Assembly: GCA_011525755.1 (NCBI GenBank)
Contig: WYBS01000091.1
Coordinates: 6,922-70,921, forward strand
Reading direction: 5' to 3'
Length of the DNA stretch: 64,000 bases
Origin: Planctomycetaceae bacterium
GTDB taxonomy: Bacteria; Planctomycetota; PLA2
The position numbers and the translations under genes were made by a program. The notes beneath the pieces are model-generated. The model worked only from the letters and a program-made list of their open reading frames with translations. It did not search any database and was not told the DNA's origin. Shown in pieces: positions 12,210 through 42,136 of the stretch. Positions within the stretch are counted from its first letter, which is position 1. The number at the start of each line of letters is the position of its first letter.

Positions 12210-12583
12210 TCCGGCCGGCGAGACCGACGGACTGGGGGAGCCAGGTCTTCCGCACCGCGCTGCTGCTGGGAGGGTGCTCGGTCTTCGAGCGGGAGGGCGA
12301 GGTCCTCGGCTACGTGGGCCTCGACTACTCGTTCTACGGCAACGGGTTCGTGTCGCACCTCTTCGTGCGCGAGGACGCGCGGCGCGAGGGCATCGGCGAG
12401 GCGCTCCTGCGCCACGCGATGGCGTCGTGCCGGACGGAGAAGCTCTTCACGTCGACGAACCTGTCGAACGCGCCGATGCAGGCGCTGCTCGGGAAGCTCG
12501 GTTTCGAGCTGACCGGCGTGGTCCACAACCTCGACCGCGGCGACCCGGAGCTCGTGTACCTGCGCCGCGCGGCCACGGGGTAG
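12206..12583 (+). CDS. GNAT family N-acetyltransferase
   Basis: 'VIRPARPTDW' is a typical GNAT start (GTG in a GTGA overlap). 'LFVREDARREGIGEALLRHAM' is the acetyl-CoA-binding motif. Confidence 0.7.
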   Translation: MIRPARPTDWGSQVFRTALLLGGCSVFEREGEVLGYVGLDYSFYGNGFVSHLFVREDARREGIGEALLRHAMASCRTEKLFTSTNLSNAPMQALLGKLGFELTGVVHNLDRGDPELVYLRRAATG

Positions 12584-12872
12584 GTCGTGCGCTCAACGCT
12601 TCGATGGGCGGCGAGCCCGCGCGCTTGCGCATCTCGGCGAGCGTGAGGTCCTCCCCTTCCGCCGGACCTCGATCAGCTTCCTGAAGGCTCCGCGGCTGGC
12701 TCGCGCGGGTGGTGCGCAACGCCGCGCGCAGCCGGTAGGCGGCGCCCTGCTCGGTGTAACACCCGTGTGACCTCGTTCCGAAGAGGGAGATCGCCACGGT
12801 CCTTCTGATCGCGCATCGCCGGTCCGTGCACGACCGAGTGACCGCCCGCATGCGGTCGAAGCCCTGATCCGC

Positions 12873-14009
12873 CTACGCGGAGAGGGACCGTTCCAGATCC
12901 CCTGCGAGCGTCTCGTACGGCTCGAGGCCGACCGAGAGGCGGATGAGGCCGTCGGCGATGCCCGCCCGCGCGCGATCCGCCGGCGGCACCATCGCGTGAG
13001 ACGTGTGCAGGGGCAGCGACGCGATCGACTCCACGCCGCCGAGCGACGGGGCCCGGCCGATCACACGGAACCGGTCATATACCCGCGCCGCCCCCGCGAG
13101 ACCGCCAAGGACCTCGAACGTGAGCATCGCCCCCGGCAATTCCATCTGCCGCTTCGCCACCGCGAAGTCCGGATGGCCCTCGAGCCCCGGGTAGTGCACG
13201 GCCGCGACGCCCTTCCGGCCCGCGAGCCACCGCGCCAGCCGCCCCGCCGTCTCCGCCTGCTGCCGCGCGCGGAGCGCAAGCGTCTTCATCGATCGCGCGA
13301 CGAGCCAAGCCGTGTCCGGGCCGAGGATCCCGCCCGTCCGCCGCCGGAACCCCTCGATCGCCGCGAGCTGCTCGTGTTGTCCCCCTAGGACCCCCCCGAT
13401 CGCGTCCGAATGGCCGCCGAGATACTTCGTCGCGCTGTGCATCACGAGATCCGCGCCGAGCGAGCACACCCTTTGCAGGGGCGGCGGCGCGAAGGTCGCG
13501 TCCACCGAGAGCAGCGCGCCCTTCGCGTGCGCGACCTCCGCGACGCGCGCGACGTCGACCACCCGGCAGAGCGGGTTCGTCGGCGTCTCGATGTGCACGA
13601 GCCGCACGTGGTCCGGCAGCGCGAGGTCGCCGAACGGGTCGAACCGCACGACGCGGATCCCGAAACGCGACAGATCCTTGTCGATCATCGCCATCGTCCC
13701 GCCGTACAGGTCGCGCGCGACCGCGATCGGACCCTCGCCGAGCGGCGCGCAGAAGAGCGCGTGGAGCGCGGCCATGCCCGACGCGAACGACACCGCTCCG
13801 TCGCAGCCCTCCGCCTCGGCGACCGCGCTCTCGAACGCGCGCGCCGCCGGGTGGCCGTAGCGGGCGTAGAACTCGCCCGGGCGCTCCCCGGCGCCCACGG
13901 CGCGGAGCGCCTCGGCACTCTCGTGCGCGAACGTCGTCGCGCGGGCAAGGGTGGGGGCGAGGGGGCCCAGGGGGGGCGCGGCATCGCCGCGGCAGCCGTA
14001 GGGTTTCAT
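12873..14009 (-). CDS. PLP-dependent trans-sulfuration enzyme (cystathionine gamma-synthase/beta-lyase family)
   Basis: 'MHSATKYLGGHSD' carries the PLP lysine. 'VHIETPTNPL'. Start chosen at 'MKPYGC...'. Confidence 0.85.
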   Translation of the reverse strand: MKPYGCRGDAAPPLGPLAPTLARATTFAHESAEALRAVGAGERPGEFYARYGHPAARAFESAVAEAEGCDGAVSFASGMAALHALFCAPLGEGPIAVARDLYGGTMAMIDKDLSRFGIRVVRFDPFGDLALPDHVRLVHIETPTNPLCRVVDVARVAEVAHAKGALLSVDATFAPPPLQRVCSLGADLVMHSATKYLGGHSDAIGGVLGGQHEQLAAIEGFRRRTGGILGPDTAWLVARSMKTLALRARQQAETAGRLARWLAGRKGVAAVHYPGLEGHPDFAVAKRQMELPGAMLTFEVLGGLAGAARVYDRFRVIGRAPSLGGVESIASLPLHTSHAMVPPADRARAGIADGLIRLSVGLEPYETLAGDLERSLSA

Positions 14010-14179
14010 GCGTGCCTCACTTGCCCTGCGCGAGGCGCCGGCTCGAAATCGTGTAGACCGGGAGGATCCCGTACTCGGCAGGGACCCGTTCCAGCAGCTC
14101 GCGGCGCGACATGCCGCCATTCTATCCGCGGGACCGGCGGGATTTTGCACCCCGCGGCCCGCGCGGCACAATAGGCGCC

Positions 14180-14995
14180 ATGAGAAGAGCCCTCCTCCTC
14201 TCCCTCGCGCTCCCTCTCCTCCTCGCCACCTGCAAGACGAGCCCGTATACGGGCCGGAAGCAACTCCACCTCTTCAGCGAATCGCAGATGAACGAGATGG
14301 GAGCGCAGGCGTACGTGGAGATGACGAGCTCCTCCTCGGTGAAGCTCATCACGGATGCGACGTACTTCGGCCCCCTCCAGGAGGTCGGCGGCGCGATCGC
14401 GCAGGCCGCGAACAAGCCGTCGTTCAAGTGGGAGTTCAAACTGATCGACGACCCGGAGACGGTCAACGCGTGGTGCCTGCCGGGCGGGAAGATCGCGTTC
14501 TACACCGCGATCTATCCGGTCCTCGTGGACACGAACGGGATGGCGATCGTCATGGGCCACGAGGTGATGCACGCGCTCCTCGAGCACGGGAACGAGCGGA
14601 TGAGCCAGAGCACGTTCGCGAACGGGATCCTCGCGGCGAGCTCGATCGCGCTCTCGAGCAACCAGTACCACGACCAGATCATCGGGCTCATCGGCGCGGG
14701 CGCGACCATCGGCGTGCTCCTGCCGTACAGCCGGAAGCACGAGAGCGAGGCGGACGAACAGGGGCTCTACCTCGCGGCGAAGGCGGGCTACGACCCGGAG
14801 GCGGGAATCCAGGTGTGGGAGCGCATGGCGAAGCTCTCGGAGGGCGCGCGGCCGCCGGAGTTCCTCTCGACGCACCCGGACCCGCGGAACCGCATCAAGA
14901 ACATGCAGAAGTGGATGCCCAAGGCGAAGCAGCTCTACGCGCAGTCGCAGAGGAAGACGAACCGGAAGCTCGCGATCCCGCCGGGCGTGAAGTAG
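14180..14995 (+). CDS. M48 family metallopeptidase lipoprotein
   Basis: Lipobox 'LLLATCK'. HExxH in 'MGHEVMHALLEHGNER'. A downstream Glu is in 'HESEADEQG'. Confidence 0.8.
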   Translation: MRRALLLSLALPLLLATCKTSPYTGRKQLHLFSESQMNEMGAQAYVEMTSSSSVKLITDATYFGPLQEVGGAIAQAANKPSFKWEFKLIDDPETVNAWCLPGGKIAFYTAIYPVLVDTNGMAIVMGHEVMHALLEHGNERMSQSTFANGILAASSIALSSNQYHDQIIGLIGAGATIGVLLPYSRKHESEADEQGLYLAAKAGYDPEAGIQVWERMAKLSEGARPPEFLSTHPDPRNRIKNMQKWMPKAKQLYAQSQRKTNRKLAIPPGVK

Positions 14996-35707: not shown

Positions 35708-36008
35708 GGAATCTCCAGGGAACGTTCCAGTGTAGAGTCTAGGGGCAAGCCCCAGCTAGCTTCGGTCCCTCGCGTGTCGGGCTCCGGGGCCCAGGATTTC
35801 GGGCCGGTGCGCGAAGGGGGCGGGGGGGCCTGTGATTTCTGCTTGCCGTCTCCCCCGGTCGGGTATGATGTCGGCAGTTACGGACCGGCTAGGCGCGGGC
35901 CCCCCGCAGGAGCGGAGGCGGGCCCCCTGTGCGGCGCCTCCCCGGTCGCGGCCCCAGAAGGTCCCACGTGCGGGACCGTTTGCAGCGGCTGCATTGGAGT
36001 TCGATTTG

Positions 36009-37211
36009 ATGAACGGGCAAGGTCCCCATGCGCCCCACGCAGGCAGGCGCCGTCGGCGCCGGCGGAGGCGCGGAGGTGCGAAGCTCACCGACCCGACGCC
36101 GGTCGCCCCGGTCGCCGGGATCCTCGCGGTCGCCCGCGAGGGCCATGGCTTCCTGCGCAACCCGAAACGCGACTGCCAGATCCAGGACGGGGATCCCTAC
36201 GTCCACCGGGAGCTGATCCAGCGCCACGGCCTCCGCGAGGGCCAGATGATCGAGGCCCACGTCTCGCGCCAGATGCGCGGGCCGGCCCCGATGGTCGCGA
36301 CCATCGACCGGGTCGAGGGACTCGACCCGGCGCAGGCGCGGGATATCCCGCGGATCGAGGAGCTGACGGTCGTGGACCCGGACAGGGCCTTCCAGCTCGT
36401 CGGCGGCGAACACCAGGACATGACGCTGCGCGTCATCGACCTCGTGACCCCGATCGGCATGGGCCAGCGCGCGCTCATCGTCGCGCCGCCTCGCACCGGC
36501 AAGACCGTGATCCTCCAGAAGCTCGCGAACGCGATCACGACCTTCCACCCCGACGTCAAGCTCCTCGTCTGCCTCGTGGACGAACGTCCCGAGGAGGCGA
36601 CGGACATGAAGCGCGCGGTGAAGGGCGAGGTCTACGCGAGCACGAACGACCTGCCCGCCGTGAACCACGTCGCGATGACCGAGCTCGTCACCGCGCGAGC
36701 GAAGCGTCTCTGCGAGCTGGGCAACAACGTGGTCGTCCTGATCGACTCGCTCACGCGCCTCGGCCGCGCGTACAACATCGAGGCGCGCGGGTCGGGGCGG
36801 ACGCTCACCGGCGGCCTCGACGCCAAGGTCCTCGAGAAACCCAAGGCGCACTTCGGCGCCGCGAGAAACATCGAGCACGGCGGCTCGCTCACCGTGATCG
36901 CCACCGCGCTCATCGACACGGGCTCGCGGATGGACCAGGTGATCTTCGAGGAGTTCAAGGGCACGGGCAACATGGAGCTCGTCCTCGACCGCGACGCGGC
37001 CGACCGGCGCATCTGGCCGGCGATCGACGTCACGACCTCCGGCACGCGCAAGGAGGAGAAGCTCGTCGCGGAGGCGAAGCTGAAGCGCATGTGGGCGCTC
37101 CGGCGGCTGCTCACGAAGATGAAGCCGCTCGAAGGGCTCGAGACGCTCATCGACCGGCTGAACAAGACGCGCAGCAACGAGGAGTTCCTCTCGCTCTTCG
37201 ACCCGAAGTGA
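36009..37211 (+). CDS. rho: transcription termination factor Rho (short N-terminus with 9-Arg tract)
   Basis: Walker A 'APPRTGKT'. OB/CSD-like region. An N-terminal extension to 35832 is possible. Confidence 0.9.
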   Translation: MNGQGPHAPHAGRRRRRRRRRGGAKLTDPTPVAPVAGILAVAREGHGFLRNPKRDCQIQDGDPYVHRELIQRHGLREGQMIEAHVSRQMRGPAPMVATIDRVEGLDPAQARDIPRIEELTVVDPDRAFQLVGGEHQDMTLRVIDLVTPIGMGQRALIVAPPRTGKTVILQKLANAITTFHPDVKLLVCLVDERPEEATDMKRAVKGEVYASTNDLPAVNHVAMTELVTARAKRLCELGNNVVVLIDSLTRLGRAYNIEARGSGRTLTGGLDAKVLEKPKAHFGAARNIEHGGSLTVIATALIDTGSRMDQVIFEEFKGTGNMELVLDRDAADRRIWPAIDVTTSGTRKEEKLVAEAKLKRMWALRRLLTKMKPLEGLETLIDRLNKTRSNEEFLSLFDPK

Positions 37212-37525
37212 ACCGCGCGGACGTCCTTGTCGAATTCGTGAAGGCGGGGGGGCCCGGGGGCCAGCACCGCAACAAGAGCGAGACGGGCGTGCGCCTCGTT
37301 CACGTCCCGACCGGGATCACGGTCACGGCGACCGAGCGCCGCGAGCGTACGCGCAACCTCGCGCTGGCCTGGGAGCGCCTCGAGGAAGCCCTGGAGCGCC
37401 GGGCGAGGAAACCGAAGCCGCGCCGCAAGACGAAGCCCTCGCGGACGTCCGTGCGCCGGCGGCTCGAGGGGAAGGCGCGGCGCGCGCGCACCAAGGAAGG
37501 CCGGCGCGCACCGGCGGCGGAGTAG
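37208..37525 (+). CDS. ArfB-like GGQ-motif peptidyl-tRNA hydrolase domain protein
   Basis: 'GGPGGQHRNKSETGVRLVHVPTGI' is the class-I release-factor GGQ domain. Basic C-terminal tail. GTGA overlap with the rho stop. Confidence 0.7.
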   Translation: MNRADVLVEFVKAGGPGGQHRNKSETGVRLVHVPTGITVTATERRERTRNLALAWERLEEALERRARKPKPRRKTKPSRTSVRRRLEGKARRARTKEGRRAPAAE

Positions 37526-37528
37526 CCC

Positions 37529-37867
37529 TCACGGGCGCCCGCCCTTCGCGCCTTTCGTCCGACCGGGCGGCGCCTTGCCGTGCCGGAGCGCGGCGACGCA
37601 GTCGTCCCAGGCCGCCTCCGCCGCGTGCGCGCGGGCAGCGAGGATGCTCGTGCCGTGCTCGTCGAAGGGGGGCGGCGCGCCCTCGTGGGGCGTGTCGCCC
37701 CCCTGCAGGCACCTTCCCGAGAGGCAGGCGCTGATCGCCTTCTCGATCACGCCCTGCTTTGCGGGCCTGGCCCGGCGCACGGCCCGCTGGATCTGCTCCA
37801 GGTGCGCGCGCGCCGTCGGGCCCCGCGGCGCGGGGATGCGGAGATCGGGCCACGCCTCGTCGGCCAT
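37529..37867 (-). CDS. small hypothetical Cys-containing protein, paralog A (113 aa)
   Basis: Shares 'AIxAC..G.C....PP...EH......A...AAE..W..C..L.HG' with the adjacent 37885-38169 ORF. Confidence 0.45.
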   Translation of the reverse strand: MADEAWPDLRIPAPRGPTARAHLEQIQRAVRRARPAKQGVIEKAISACLSGRCLQGGDTPHEGAPPPFDEHGTSILAARAHAAEAAWDDCVAALRHGKAPPGRTKGAKGGRP

Positions 37868-37884
37868 TGCCGTCCAGCCTCGGG

Positions 37885-38169
37885 CTAGGCGCCGTGCTCG
37901 AGCTCGTCGGCGCAGAGGCCCCAGTTGCTCTCGGCGGCGAGGCAGCGCGCCCAGAGCACGTGCTGCTCGTGCACGCCGGGGGCCGGCGGAGGCGTGCCGG
38001 TGGGCCTGCAGATCCCGCCCTTGCAGGCGTTGATCGCGAGCAAGATGCGGTTGAGCAGCGTCGGGTTGCTCGCGAGCTCCGTCTGCGCCCTGGTCCTGAT
38101 CCAGTCCAGGTGGTCCGCGGCGGTGTAGGTCGGACTGCCATGGGGACAAGGGTCGTTCGGCCACGCCAT
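37885..38169 (-). CDS. small hypothetical Cys-containing protein, paralog B (94 aa)
   Basis: GGGAGG RBS 5 nt upstream of the ATG. Paralogous to 37529-37867. Confidence 0.5.
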   Translation of the reverse strand: MAWPNDPCPHGSPTYTAADHLDWIRTRAQTELASNPTLLNRILLAINACKGGICRPTGTPPPAPGVHEQHVLWARCLAAESNWGLCADELEHGA

Positions 38170-38194
38170 GCCATACCTCCCGTTCCGACGGTCT

Positions 38195-38404
38195 TCTCAG
38201 AGCTTGTGAAGAGATCCCGGCGTCGGCCCGAGGCCGAGCGAGAAGCCGGTCCCGAAGGGACGCCGCTCTGCGCGGCCGCGTTGCGCGCCGGCGAGGCGCG
38301 CAGCCGACCTGGGTTGACGGAGAAACCCAGCGAGGCGGCGCGCCGAAGCCGGGCGGCTTCGTAGCCGGCCGAAGCCGGCAGGGATCTGTTCACAAGCTCT
38401 CAGA
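38195..38404. repeat. about 22-bp inverted repeats (TCTCAGAGCTTGTGAAGAGATC / GATCTGTTCACAAGCTCTCAGA, 20/22) flanking a 166-bp GC-rich segment
   Basis: Direct reading. It lies between the 3' end of the kinase gene and the 5' end of the small-protein pair. Confidence 0.5.
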
Positions 38405-38494
38405 CGTCAGCGTGCGCAGGATACCATATGGCACAGTTGCGTGCGCCGCCGGGCGGCCGGCCCTCCCCCGGGCCCCCTCCCTTCCACGGGTCGC

Positions 38495-41400
38495 TCAGGC
38501 CGGACCGGACCACGCCGCGACGAACATGCGCCGCTCCTCCTCCGTCGGGAGGCGGGCGGCAAGCTGGTGCAGCTCGTCCTTGCGGATCGTCGCGTGCTGC
38601 GACTCGCCGAGCCGAGCGAGCATCCCGCGGAGCCGCAGCGTGAGCCAGACGTGGCCGAGGCGGCGGGCGTCCGCGAGCGCGCGCTCCGCGCGGCCCTTGG
38701 CCCCGTCGAGGTAGCCCGCCCGTGCGCGCCCCTCGGCCTCGAGAACGCCGCCGAGCACGCGAAAGGCCGCGCGCCGGAGGCCCACGTCCTCCCCGCAGAG
38801 CCGCTCGGCCGCGGCGAGCAGCAGGGACGGATCCTTTTCGCGTGCGGCGAGCGCGCGTGCGGCACGTGCGAGCGCGAGGGGCCGGAGGACGACGTGCGCG
38901 TCGTCTGCGCGCGCATCCGCGACCAGCGCCTCCGCCTCCTCCAGCAGCTCCGCCGGCGCGCCGTAGACGCACGCCTCGGCGAGCCACAGCACGGCCTCGG
39001 CGCGCGGCGGGAGCTCCTTCACGGCCCTCGCCGTGGCGAGCGTCTGCCGCGCCGCGCTCGTGGCGCGGGCGAGGTCGCCCGCGAAGCACGCCACGTGGCA
39101 GGCCAACGCGTGGCCCTGGAGGATGTTGATCCTGTCGTCGCGGAGCTGGGCGAGACGCTGCATCTCGGCGAGGGCCTCCAGGGCCACGTCGAGGAACCCC
39201 TCGACCGCGGCGAGGTGCGCGCGCTGGCGGAGGGCGGGGATGAGGCCGCCGAGATACCGCTCCCGTCGCAGCGTCGGCAGGGCGTCGTCGATGGCGGCCT
39301 TCGCGCCCGGGAGGTCGCCGATCGCGTAGCGCGTTTCCGCGAGGAGGACGCGGGCGGCCGACGCATGGTGGAAGGAGCCCTCGCGAAGCAGCACCCGGAC
39401 CACGTCCTCGAGCCGCCCGCAAACCCCGTCGACGGCGCCGCGCTGCAGGGAGGCGAGGGCGCGGTTCCCCTCGGAGAGGGCGGCGTTGCTGCGCCGGCCG
39501 ACCATGGCGGAGATCCGGGCCGCGTCGCCGTAGAGGGCCTCCGCCTCACGCCACCGGCCCCGCCGGAGGGCGACCGATCCGAGCTGGTCGAGCGCCGAGG
39601 AGTGGTGCCCGAGATCGCCCGAGGCGACGTAGGCGTCGTCGGCGAGCCGGAACCGCCGCTCCGCCTCGTCGAGGTCGCCGCGGTACTTGGAGACCTGGCC
39701 GAGCAGGTACCAGGCCCGGCCCTGGTAGCTGCAGGGGGGGAGGGTCCGCACGGCCTGCCGGAGCGCTTCCTCGTCGAGGCCCACGAGCCCCTGCGACTGG
39801 TAGCGGGTGGTGGCGCGGAGGATCATCACCTTGAGGTCCAGGTGGGTGTCGTTCGCGAGCTTCGCGCCCTCGCTCAGCCGGGCGTACACCGCCTCGATCT
39901 CCTCGAGCCGTCCGACCTGCCCCAGGGCGACGCAGAGCCCGAGGAGCAGCTCGGAGTGGCGGACGGCGGTCTCCGGGTCGAGGCGTTCCGGGCCGAGGCC
40001 GGCGCGACGTGCGAGATCCAGCGCGCGGAGGGACTCCTGCCGCGCCAGGGCCTCCTGGGCCGCCCGCATGAGGTGCGGCCCCGCCTTCGCGGGCTCCCCC
40101 GCGCGCTCCCAGTGGATGCCGAGACGGGCCGCCGCGCCCGCCGTCCCGTCGGCGCGCGTTTCCAGGTGCTCGGCGAGGCAGCGATGGAGCGTCCGGCGCA
40201 GGTCCGGCACCAGATCCTCGTAGATCCCCTCCTGGACGGCCGCGTTCGCGAAGCGGAATCCCTTGGCCCGCGGCACGACGAGCCCCGTCGCCCGGTAGAT
40301 CCGCTGCGCGCCCCGGAGCACGTCGAGCACCGGCCGGCCCCAGGCGGCCGCGACGGCTTCGGCATCGAACTCGACGCCGTCGACCGCCGCGGTATCGAGG
40401 ATCGCCCGCTCGTCGTCCCCGAGCTCCCTCGCTCGAAGCAGCACGAGGTCGCGCACGCGGCTCGGGAGGGTGACGTCATGGAAGGCCGGGCCGGGGACCA
40501 GCATGCCCCTGTCGTTCGAGAGCGCTCCCGCCTCCTGGAGGTGGCGGAAGACCTCGATCGTCAGGAGGGGATTGCCCTCGGCGACGTCGAGTACGCGGCG
40601 CAGGACCTCCGGAGCCACGCGGGACCCGTGGGCACGTTCCTGGAGGAGCCGCGACACGGCGTCGGGGTCGAGAGGCCCCAGCTCGAGGATGGCCGCGCCG
40701 TCCTGCGCGAATCCGGAGAACGCGTCCGCCGCACGGTCCGGGCGCAGCGTGATCAGGAGGAGGACGCGCGCATCCCTGAGGCGACGCGCGATCTCCTGCA
40801 GCAGTCGCAGATCCGCCTCGTCAGCCTGGTGGGCGTCCTCGACGAGGATCCCCAGCGGGCGATCCTCCGCGAGGCCCGCGAGCAGGTCCTCCACGCCCCA
40901 GAACACCTGCTGGCGGCTGTCGATCCGCACCGGGCTCTCCTCCTCGAGCAGCGCCCGCAACAGGTTCGTCGCGGTCCCGAAGAGCCTCGACTCGACGAGG
41001 CCTTCCCCCTCTCGGCCCTGCGACGCACCGAGGAGGTCGCGCGCACTGGTCAGCAGCGGCCGGAGCAGCCCCTCGATCGGACTCGATCGCGCCTGGATCC
41101 ACCGGTAGCCGTGACGTCCGGAGCGAGCCATGAGGTCATGGGCGAGCGCGCTCTTGCCCAGCCCCGCCTCCCCCCGCAGGAGGACGGTCGTGCCGTGGGC
41201 CTCGGCCGCCCGCTGCGCCGCCTTGTCCAGCGCGTCCTGCTCGGCGCGGCGGCCGTGGAGCCGGGACGCCGGCGCCACCCTCGGCACGGCGGCCCGGGGC
41301 GCCGCCTCGGCGACCGTCGTCGCCGGATCGAGATCGGAGAGCGCCTCCGCGCACGACGCCGGCCGCTCCTCGGGCGCCTTCGACAGGCAGCGCATCGCGA

Positions 41401-42136
41401 GGTCGGCGAGGGGGCGCGGGAGGTCCGGGTCGAGCGGCGGGGGGTCGCCGTTCTGGATCGCGTAGAAGAGCGTGGCAAGCGTCTTCGCGAAGAACGGCAG
41501 CCGGCCCGAGAGGATCCGGTACAGCACGGCGCCGACGCTCCAGAGGTCGCTCGCGCGGGTCGGCTGCTCGCCCATGACGATCTCGGGGGCCATGTAGACC
41601 GGCGTGCCCACGACCGCCGCGAGCGGGACGCGGAGCGAGAGGTCGCCGGTGAGCCGCGAGAGCCCGAAATCGACGAGCTTCACCGTGCCGTCCCTCGCGA
41701 AGAGGACGTTGCCGGGCTTCACGTCGCCATGCACGACCCCCTGACCGTGCGCCTCCTTGAGACCGAGAAGGATCCCGCGGACGATGCGCCGCGCCTCGTC
41801 GAAGGGGATCCGCGGGGTCGAGTGGATCCGATCCTCGAGCGATCCGCCCTCGACGTACTCGAGCTCGAAGGCCCAGCCCCGCTCCGGCAGCGGATGCACG
41901 CGGTAGAGCGTGGCGACGTGCGATCCCTTCAGCTTGCCGACGAGCCGCGCCTCGCGGAGAAGCGCATCCTTCTCCTCCTCGACCGGCCCGCTCCCGGGCA
42001 GCTCGACGACCTTCAGGGCGACGTGCCGGCCAAGGAGCAGATCGCGGGCGAGATAGACCTGGCCGAATGCGCCGCTCCCGAGCGCACGGACGATCTCGAG
42101 GTCACCGAAGCGGGATCCGGATCGCCACGCCTCCAC
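38495..42136 (-). CDS. Ser/Thr protein kinase fused to AAA+ ATPase and TPR/regulatory C-terminal region
   Basis: Kinase motifs 'LGSGAFGQVYLA', 'VALK', 'HGDVKPGNVL', 'DFGLS', 'APE'. P-loop 'GEAGLGKS'. 1213 aa. Confidence 0.85.
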   Translation of the reverse strand: MEAWRSGSRFGDLEIVRALGSGAFGQVYLARDLLLGRHVALKVVELPGSGPVEEEKDALLREARLVGKLKGSHVATLYRVHPLPERGWAFELEYVEGGSLEDRIHSTPRIPFDEARRIVRGILLGLKEAHGQGVVHGDVKPGNVLFARDGTVKLVDFGLSRLTGDLSLRVPLAAVVGTPVYMAPEIVMGEQPTRASDLWSVGAVLYRILSGRLPFFAKTLATLFYAIQNGDPPPLDPDLPRPLADLAMRCLSKAPEERPASCAEALSDLDPATTVAEAAPRAAVPRVAPASRLHGRRAEQDALDKAAQRAAEAHGTTVLLRGEAGLGKSALAHDLMARSGRHGYRWIQARSSPIEGLLRPLLTSARDLLGASQGREGEGLVESRLFGTATNLLRALLEEESPVRIDSRQQVFWGVEDLLAGLAEDRPLGILVEDAHQADEADLRLLQEIARRLRDARVLLLITLRPDRAADAFSGFAQDGAAILELGPLDPDAVSRLLQERAHGSRVAPEVLRRVLDVAEGNPLLTIEVFRHLQEAGALSNDRGMLVPGPAFHDVTLPSRVRDLVLLRARELGDDERAILDTAAVDGVEFDAEAVAAAWGRPVLDVLRGAQRIYRATGLVVPRAKGFRFANAAVQEGIYEDLVPDLRRTLHRCLAEHLETRADGTAGAAARLGIHWERAGEPAKAGPHLMRAAQEALARQESLRALDLARRAGLGPERLDPETAVRHSELLLGLCVALGQVGRLEEIEAVYARLSEGAKLANDTHLDLKVMILRATTRYQSQGLVGLDEEALRQAVRTLPPCSYQGRAWYLLGQVSKYRGDLDEAERRFRLADDAYVASGDLGHHSSALDQLGSVALRRGRWREAEALYGDAARISAMVGRRSNAALSEGNRALASLQRGAVDGVCGRLEDVVRVLLREGSFHHASAARVLLAETRYAIGDLPGAKAAIDDALPTLRRERYLGGLIPALRQRAHLAAVEGFLDVALEALAEMQRLAQLRDDRINILQGHALACHVACFAGDLARATSAARQTLATARAVKELPPRAEAVLWLAEACVYGAPAELLEEAEALVADARADDAHVVLRPLALARAARALAAREKDPSLLLAAAERLCGEDVGLRRAAFRVLGGVLEAEGRARAGYLDGAKGRAERALADARRLGHVWLTLRLRGMLARLGESQHATIRKDELHQLAARLPTEEERRMFVAAWSGPA

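Follow-up and report, generated by a model that had tools for sequence, protein, structure and literature searches.

Two small tandem genes beside a PknK-type kinase gene in a planctomycete contig belong to an undescribed Cys-His-His protein family

What do two small adjacent genes do that resemble each other, resemble no named protein, and lie next to the gene of a giant protein kinase? The question arises in a stretch of 64,000 nucleotides (nt) from a Planctomycetaceae bacterium (assembly GCA_011525755.1, contig WYBS01000091.1, positions 6,922 to 70,921), referred to here as the window. On its minus strand, two open reading frames (ORFs), which we call genes A and B (Table 1), have rho and arfB (RF-1 domain) as neighbours to one side and the gene of a 1213-amino-acid (aa) Ser/Thr kinase to the other, as a preliminary description made from the sequence alone had stated. 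That description gave a tandem pair of 94 and 113 aa; the arrangement and the first size are correct, while the second counts the stop codon of a protein of 112 aa. Our comparative analysis answers part of the question plainly, as the domain of about 90 residues shared by A and B is an undescribed family, and both the family and its genomic association with the kinase are new. What the pair does for the kinase can be answered in graded terms only.

Genes A and B are paralogues of no known family, as had been proposed. Their products are 36% identical (BLASTP E=9e-6), and the profile of the A orthologues matches that of the B orthologues in HHalign with a probability of 99.7% (E=3e-25). The homologue search proposed for both peptides returned relatives of each, all of them unnamed; orthologues of A (P0001-P0008) are 52-84% identical to it and those of B (P0009-P0011) 64-97%. 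The spaced pattern first noticed in the two window copies holds when they are aligned with 13 orthologues, and H20, C49, C54, H67, C86 and H92 (A numbering, used throughout) are invariant in this alignment. The three conserved Cys of the preliminary description were therefore correctly identified, but the conserved His are three (H20, H67, H92) and not one. W-P, AxxHLxxI, AR..A, W83 and LxHG are also shared, and conservation runs over the full length up to the extreme C-terminus. The gene A product is acidic and has five Cys, with W3-P4, C8, H20, C49, C54, H67, C76, W83, C86 and H92 as its landmarks; the gene B product is basic, has three Cys and keeps the motifs of A, with C48, C53, H71, W87, C90 and H96 in its own numbering. 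They begin with M-A-W-P and M-A-D-E-A-W-P, respectively. An upstream in-frame extension is impossible for A, and the one possible for B looks non-coding. Lipoprotein status was rejected for both, because unlike several relatives they have no lipobox or signal peptide, which places the window copies in the cytoplasm.

In DNA of such composition it has to be asked whether the two frames are genes at all. The G+C content of the window is 72.3%, which produces long shadow ORFs on both strands in this region (for example 37323-38393 and 37575-38033), and the antisense frames of some relatives are free of stop codons, so that A and B might be chance frames or the conserved gene might lie antisense. 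In the window and in locus L019, however, all three antisense frames contain stops, which disposes of the antisense frame that had been named as a possible refutation. The spacer between A and B measures 17 nt in the window and 6 or 11 nt in other loci; since these lengths differ by non-multiples of three, no conserved ORF can span both genes. The motifs are kept across 79 domain copies, insertions and deletions among the orthologues comprise whole codons, and the fold is predicted with confidence. Moreover, neither the GGAGG of the ribosome-binding site nor the ATGGC-ATG start context varies among five loci, the remaining spacer being divergent. The G+C content at third codon positions is 0.94 in A and B and 0.93 in the kinase gene. 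The exact sequences of A, B and the kinase are present, unnamed, in the public protein collection (NCBI and Logan, 92.6-kb contig), whereas the shadow ORFs were sought there and are absent.

Substitution patterns speak the same language. The ratios of non-synonymous to synonymous substitution rates (dN/dS; Nei-Gojobori, all pairs) are 0.23-0.8 for A and 0.47-0.58 for B, with one exception, the closest pair of A sequences, at 1.17. This value arises because dS is unusually low and not because dN is high; positive selection on A, which a comparison with L003 (16 codon changes non-synonymous, 3 synonymous) had brought to mind, is not claimed. Between the window and L003 (1342-1626), dS is 0.073 for A, compared with 0.27 for B, 0.34 for the kinase C-terminus and 0.42 for arfB on the same pair of contigs. 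Recent local recombination or constraint at the nucleotide level could account for the low value in A. Altogether, A and B are almost certainly real genes of one family, and the explanation by chance or antisense frames, hardly conceivable to us, is already refuted by the homologues, the conservation of motifs, the ribosome-binding site and dN/dS.

The family extends well beyond the close relatives of the pair. When 1.84 billion representative proteins were searched with a profile, 43 clusters (at 50% identity) reached E<=1e-3, and four types of members can be distinguished. The first comprises cytoplasmic single domains that start with M-x-W-P and split into an A type, with a net charge of -1 to -5, and a B type, mostly 0 to +6 and with a C-terminal tail rich in Pro, Lys and Arg. 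In the second, a single domain follows an N-terminal hydrophobic helix, and in the third (at least 8 proteins) one or two domains follow a textbook lipoprotein signal, the lipobox [LVI][ASTVI][GAS]C being present in P0026, P0030, P0036, P0041, P0042, P0047, P0049, P0055 and P0056. The fourth type consists of 11 proteins with two domains in one chain. The longest member has 257 aa, and fusions to known domains are thus absent. The signature of the family, W3-P4 near the mature N-terminus followed by C49, H67, A74, W83 and L90-x-H92 within about 90 residues, is complete in both A and B, and a hidden Markov model of the family run against the six-frame translation of the window matches only these two (E=4e-32 and 4e-30). 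The homologues come from metagenomes and metagenome-assembled genomes and are unnamed; two relatives were labelled Planctomycetota by their depositors. The family is rare, and the lineages that are known to have it are all uncultured and probably planctomycete. As to its termini, the tail of the B type corresponds to 37529-37573 in the window and cytoplasmic fusions end in poly-Lys (P0034, P0046); through these basic tails, the lipobox or the hydrophobic helix at the N-terminus, a tether to the membrane is conceivable for most subfamilies.

Searches against known families and folds remained empty. No match was found in Pfam, NCBIfam, PADLOC or PHROGs for A, B, 38 aligned family members or 10 fusions, and A and B matched nothing in Pfam, NCBIfam and PADLOC even at E<=10. 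Foldseek found no match in the Protein Data Bank (PDB) or among viral structures, and family profiles gave only chance matches to PDB sequences (terpene synthase, E=0.15; eIF3c, E=0.75). No homologue from a phage or plasmid was detected in PHROGs, in viral structures or by tblastn against plasmids; one weak match to Rhizobium replicons in the last search (E=6e-3) was dismissed as chance because the motifs are missing and the matching stretch is an in-frame part of an unrelated ORF of 484 aa. A scan of GTDB with the A-family alignment returned nothing, its pattern being too strict, and a metagenome scan for members with a transmembrane anchor was likewise empty.

The AlphaFold model of A is confident (mean predicted local distance difference test score, pLDDT, 91.5; predicted template-modelling score, pTM, 0.85) and has four helices, at residues 17-31, 36-50, 66-79 and 83-90. 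Both halves of the fusion protein P0036 are predicted with the same four-helix pattern, and the HHalign match to the A family suggests it for B as well. In these models the invariant Cys ends helix 2, a His starts helix 3, the Trp starts helix 4 and the last His stands just after it. Within each predicted helix, conserved positions, many of them Ala, recur at i, i+3/4 and i+7 (17-21-24-28, 42-45-49, 67-71-74-78 and 83-86-90) and hence lie on single faces.

What surrounds these genes in other genomes provided the strongest clue to their function. The preliminary description had treated the kinase as a landmark only; it turned out to be the single conserved feature of the context of the small genes. 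The kinase of the window has a Pkinase domain (residues 14-265, E=7e-48), an AAA_16 ATPase of the STAND class (signal transduction ATPases that have numerous domains; 293-460, E=1e-16) and, at about 770-961, a MalT-like tetratricopeptide repeat (TPR) region whose match to TPR_MalT (E=1e-5) is below the Pfam gathering cut-off. It has the Walker A motif GEAGLGKS, the C-terminal motif RLGHVWL and no transmembrane segment. Residues 136-143, HGDVKPGN, replace HRD, which makes it a non-RD kinase, with DFG intact. The same holds for five full-length orthologues, so that all six are non-RD (HGD[VI]KPxN) with an intact DFG, share the C-terminal LGH[VA][WF]L...AW and lack any hydrophobic segment of transmembrane strength, at 40-70% identity; five of the six have Walker A. 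Overall, the kinases whose sequences are in hand are 39-70% identical to that of the window and have the same architecture or the C-terminal motif.

In every related locus with enough flanking sequence (about 11), a gene of the small family abuts the 3' end of the kinase gene, either overlapping it or at a distance of 0-125 nt. In the window, A starts 325 nt past the kinase stop codon, or about 122 nt when an insertion resembling a miniature inverted-repeat transposable element (MITE) is subtracted. Two orientations occur. The order kinase, A, B on one strand is found in the window and in L001/L002, L003-L006, L007-L009 and L019. Convergent arrangements, overlapping or within about 66 nt, are found in L010-L012 (P0036), L013 (P0034), L017 (P0042), L018 (P0033), L020 (P0026), L021 (P0041) and the contig of P0035; on this last contig the kinase was judged from gene size and orientation only. 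Members at the convergent loci are 23-44% identical to A or to the fusion P0036. The other neighbours vary from locus to locus, with rho/arfB and EF-G in the window and L001, and clpC/mcsB in L010; L020 has a URO-D gene and an epimerase gene at this place, and L021 has genes for an ABC transporter and a glycosyltransferase. Furthermore, a scan of 185,579 GTDB species-representative genomes for the C-terminal motif of the kinase hit one locus, L019, and this locus carries A and B. On the strength of this genomic context, a functional partnership of A and B with the adjacent kinase is very likely.

A kinase of this build could also belong to a conflict system. Bacterial defence proteins of the Avs/NLR-like kind are laid out as an N-terminal effector, a STAND ATPase and a TPR sensor, and the kinase, which is moreover non-RD, would fit as an immune sensor with the small proteins as trigger mimic, antitoxin or modulator. 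The rare and patchy distribution agrees with this idea, as does the faster evolution of A, B and the C-terminal region of the kinase compared with arfB (dN/dS 0.23-0.8 versus 0.11-0.23). However, no model of PADLOC-DB v2 matches A or B, and the kinase is matched only through residues of about 7-330, its generic kinase domain. The kinase also looks 1:1 orthologous and has housekeeping genes for neighbours (rho, arfB, EF-G, trigger factor, clpC) and not a defence island, our searches recovered no phage or plasmid relative of the family, and exported lipoproteins would be ill-suited as antitoxins. We consider a defence function very unlikely.

Several observations suggest that A and B act as one two-domain unit rather than separately. 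The preliminary description had asked for conservation of the pair in relatives, and this is what we found: the genes stand in tandem in all loci of the close clade, that is, in all loci with the co-directional order listed above, and are replaced by a single fused protein elsewhere. A contig of 1.2 kb (L014) carries a tandem pair of paralogues with transmembrane anchors. The 11 natural two-domain fusions align domain for domain with A-linker-B. For P0036, AlphaFold gives a pTM of 0.80 despite about 30 disordered residues (signal peptide and linker have low confidence), which suggests that the two domains pack against each other in a fixed way. With the tandem genes, the fusions, this model and the opposite charges taken together, it is rather probable that acidic A and basic B form a heterodimer. 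L017, on the other side, has a copy with a single domain only, so the pair is not obligatory.

The residues that the family keeps point to the chemistry that such a unit might perform. Cys49 and His92 are invariant in 79/79 domain copies and His67 is missing in 3/79; W83 and L90 come close to invariance, with W3-P4 not far behind. Only the cytoplasmic A/B clade has C54 and H20. Outside it, C8, C68 and C86 are frequent, four Cys (C8, C49, C68, C86) being usual in exported members, and each of the three is lost in some members; domain 1 of P0036 lacks all of them. Since every Cys except C49 has been lost somewhere, C49 cannot be a universal disulfide partner, and the pattern of conservation favours a functional thiol over a disulfide. 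The simplest reading of these alignments is a functional Cys-His-His site. That it binds a metal or undergoes redox chemistry is a possibility to which we give somewhat less than an even chance, as it follows from conservation. Taken as a whole, the preliminary reading of the pair as small metal-binding or disulfide proteins of no known family is supported in part.

Alternatively, the Cys and His might be purely structural, holding zinc or forming disulfides, and A·B might be a substrate of the kinase or else its pseudosubstrate, inhibitor or docking adaptor. The linkage to the kinase would be explained equally well in this way, and structural metals and disulfides are common in small domains. 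The four Cys of the exported members fit two disulfides, and a Thr stands ahead of helix 1 in most members (GPTA). The first of these points is countered by C49, which is invariant while all its possible disulfide partners are dispensable, as in domain 1 of P0036; the second by the position of the Thr, which is typical of a helix N-cap, and by its replacement in several members. A role of this kind appears unlikely to us.

The interpretation that we favour, at a probability of roughly 40%, is that A and B, as a heterodimer, are a module for metal or thiol sensing and work as the partner of this kinase. A and B would each provide one four-helix domain and together one A·B heterodimer, and this would serve the neighbouring cytoplasmic kinase, with its Hanks kinase domain, STAND ATPase and MalT-like TPR sensor, as a dedicated partner. 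The Cys-His-His trio, in the cytoplasmic clade together with C54, H20 and C86, would hold Zn or Cu or serve as a thiol switch that can be oxidised. The C-terminal TPR sensor of the kinase would read whether A·B is loaded or oxidised, comparable to the control of MalT by inducer and regulators, and this readout would gate ATP-dependent oligomerisation and kinase output. A direct input of A·B to the TPR sensor, which draws on the analogy with MalT, is a tentative proposal. The fullest version, in which a pseudo-dimeric Cys-His-His module serves as a signal-input subunit that senses a metal or an oxidant, switches the kinase and has been reused in the cytoplasm, on the membrane and, outside the cell, as a lipoprotein, is more doubtful still.

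Several findings weigh against this interpretation. Convergent gene pairs are not co-transcribed. Relatives with a lipobox (at least 8) or a signal anchor should be exported, and the neighbouring kinase has no transmembrane segment; direct binding therefore cannot be universal, but it would be possible for the cytoplasmic pair of the window. The loop that joins helices 2 and 3 has 15 residues and permits alternative topologies. Moreover, the genomic context comes from few related uncultured lineages, and some of the adjacency could be inherited rather than selected.

The exported forms and the convergent gene pairs also speak for the principal rival, in which the domain handles metals or redox reactions on its own, as a metallochaperone, a metal buffer or a thiol-redox protein, and the kinase is only co-regulated with it or regulates it, with no physical contact between the two. 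Cytoplasmic, membrane-anchored and lipoprotein forms are typical of metal and redox domains but sit uneasily with a ligand dedicated to a cytoplasmic kinase. All of these forms retain the Cys-His-His trio, and many of the pairs are convergent. Nevertheless, adjacency to the kinase persists where the kinases are only 40% identical, in both orientations and through a full turnover of the other neighbours, and none of the loci examined revealed a conserved metal transporter, oxidoreductase or metalloregulator as a neighbour. We therefore regard independence from the kinase as rather unlikely.

A sensing module that partners the kinase would have parallels in known systems. The kinase shares the combination of a Hanks kinase, AAA_16/STAND and MalT-like TPR with PknK-type kinases such as that of Mycobacterium tuberculosis, the likeness being one of architecture. 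MalT is under the control of both small ligands and regulatory proteins. One account of this protein describes that binding of the signal to the sensor domain frees the nucleotide-binding domain for multimerisation (PMC4381067), and the role suggested for A·B copies this regulatory logic, the binding of A·B to the TPR region being inferred only. In the literature that we searched, no dedicated small-protein partner has been reported for PknK-type kinases. The orthologous kinase adjoins rho in the window (35832-37211) and in L001, and clpC/mcsB in L010 (clpC at 12317-14785); Rho and ClpC are reported candidate targets of M. tuberculosis PknK (PMC9045387). This siting beside candidate-target genes may be a coincidence.

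Likenesses to small proteins of other families were followed up and rejected as membership. Zinc-binding anti-sigma (ZAS) factors such as RsrA are likewise small, cytoplasmic and helical, with invariant His and Cys that hold zinc and a thiol oxidation that switches partner binding. However, their H-x3-C-x2-C is absent here (H20...C49-x4-C54...H67...H92), there is no match to zf-HC2, no sigma factor gene is nearby and the presumed partner is of another kind. The copper storage proteins Csp1/Csp3 (DUF326) are small four-helix bundles with inward-facing Cys for metal and have both cytoplasmic and exported forms. Csp proteins line their whole core with 13 or more Cys. Our family has one universal Cys and two His, no Pfam match, and no significant similarity to Csp3 of B. 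subtilis in Foldseek (5fig; E=6.8, TM-score 0.28). WXG100 proteins (EsxA/EsxB) are encoded by adjacent paralogous genes of about 100 codons and form helical 1:1 heterodimers, but each of them folds as a hairpin of two helices with a W-x-G turn and is a substrate of type VII secretion. A has four predicted helices, neither A nor B matches PF06013 or has secretion genes nearby, and the WxG turn is absent, as W83 is at a helix start and is followed by G-L in A and by D-D at the equivalent position of B. A precursor of a ribosomally synthesised and post-translationally modified peptide was rejected as well, in view of conservation over the full length, the confident globular fold and the absence of a maturase-like neighbour in any locus examined.

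The coordinates of the features are given in Table 1. The GGGAGG upstream of A had already been proposed as its ribosome-binding site, and the conservation of its core bears this out. In the spacer between the kinase gene and A, the conserved box is preceded at promoter-like spacing by TTGACG in L001, L007 and L019, a hexamer absent from the window and L003; a simple sigma-70 scan at the box found nothing. The inverted-repeat element that had been seen next to the pair is indeed there: the MITE-like insertion has 27-nt inverted arms that are 89% complementary, bounded by the 7-nt direct repeat TCTGAGA at 38398-38404 and 38195-38201, and its RNA folds at -144.5 kcal/mol (z = -7.6). The site is uninterrupted in L003, L007, L001 and L019 and has TCTGAGA once (TCCGCGG in L019). 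Within the window the insertion is single-copy, and a shorter element with the same arms occurs in L027 (319-486). It is an intruder in the locus, separate from the protein system.

Table 1. Features of the A-B locus, in positions of the window.
Feature	Position	Strand	Details
Gene A	37885-38169	minus	94 aa, ATG at 38169; from the ORF list
Gene B	37529-37867	minus	112 aa and stop codon; from the ORF list; exact sequence is P0054
Kinase gene	38495-42136	minus	1213 aa, cytoplasmic Ser/Thr kinase; from Pfam and motifs
GGGAGG ribosome-binding site of A	38176-38181	minus	6 nt before ATG; GGAGG core invariant in window, L003, L007, L001 and L019
Box GTGCCAT(A)TGGTA	38421-38434	minus	conserved in spacer alignment; candidate promoter/operator of A-B
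MITE-like insertion	38195-38404	.	about 203 nt, between the box and the ribosome-binding site of A

At the other end of the pair, arfB follows rho and is convergent with B, and only 3 nt separate the arfB stop codon on the plus strand from that of B on the minus strand (37525-37529). A scan of 37300-38700 for promoters and terminators found none, and no terminator-like hairpin was detected between B and arfB; with stop codons so close, the convergent transcripts should therefore overlap. A similar overlap is seen in distant relatives, in which the small gene runs 4-13 nt into the 3' end of the kinase gene (L010, L013, L021). A search of the window against Rfam gave no match. The longest version of the rho ORF (35832-37211) encodes 459 aa, with an Arg-rich low-complexity N-terminus (35832-36100) that includes RRRRRRRRGG. 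In L001, rho is called with 374 aa only, and thus the true start may be further downstream or Rho may have an N-terminal extension.

To our knowledge, what activates the bacterial PknK-type Hanks kinases with STAND ATPase and TPR sensors is still unknown. An invariantly co-located Cys-His-His partner provides a concrete candidate for their input. The split pairs and fusions represent a natural "Rosetta stone" for the proposed heterodimer, and the family places one and the same domain on both sides of the membrane. If the fullest version of our interpretation is true, A and B would be the first defined ligand or sensor partner of PknK-like kinases and would represent a fold family not seen before.

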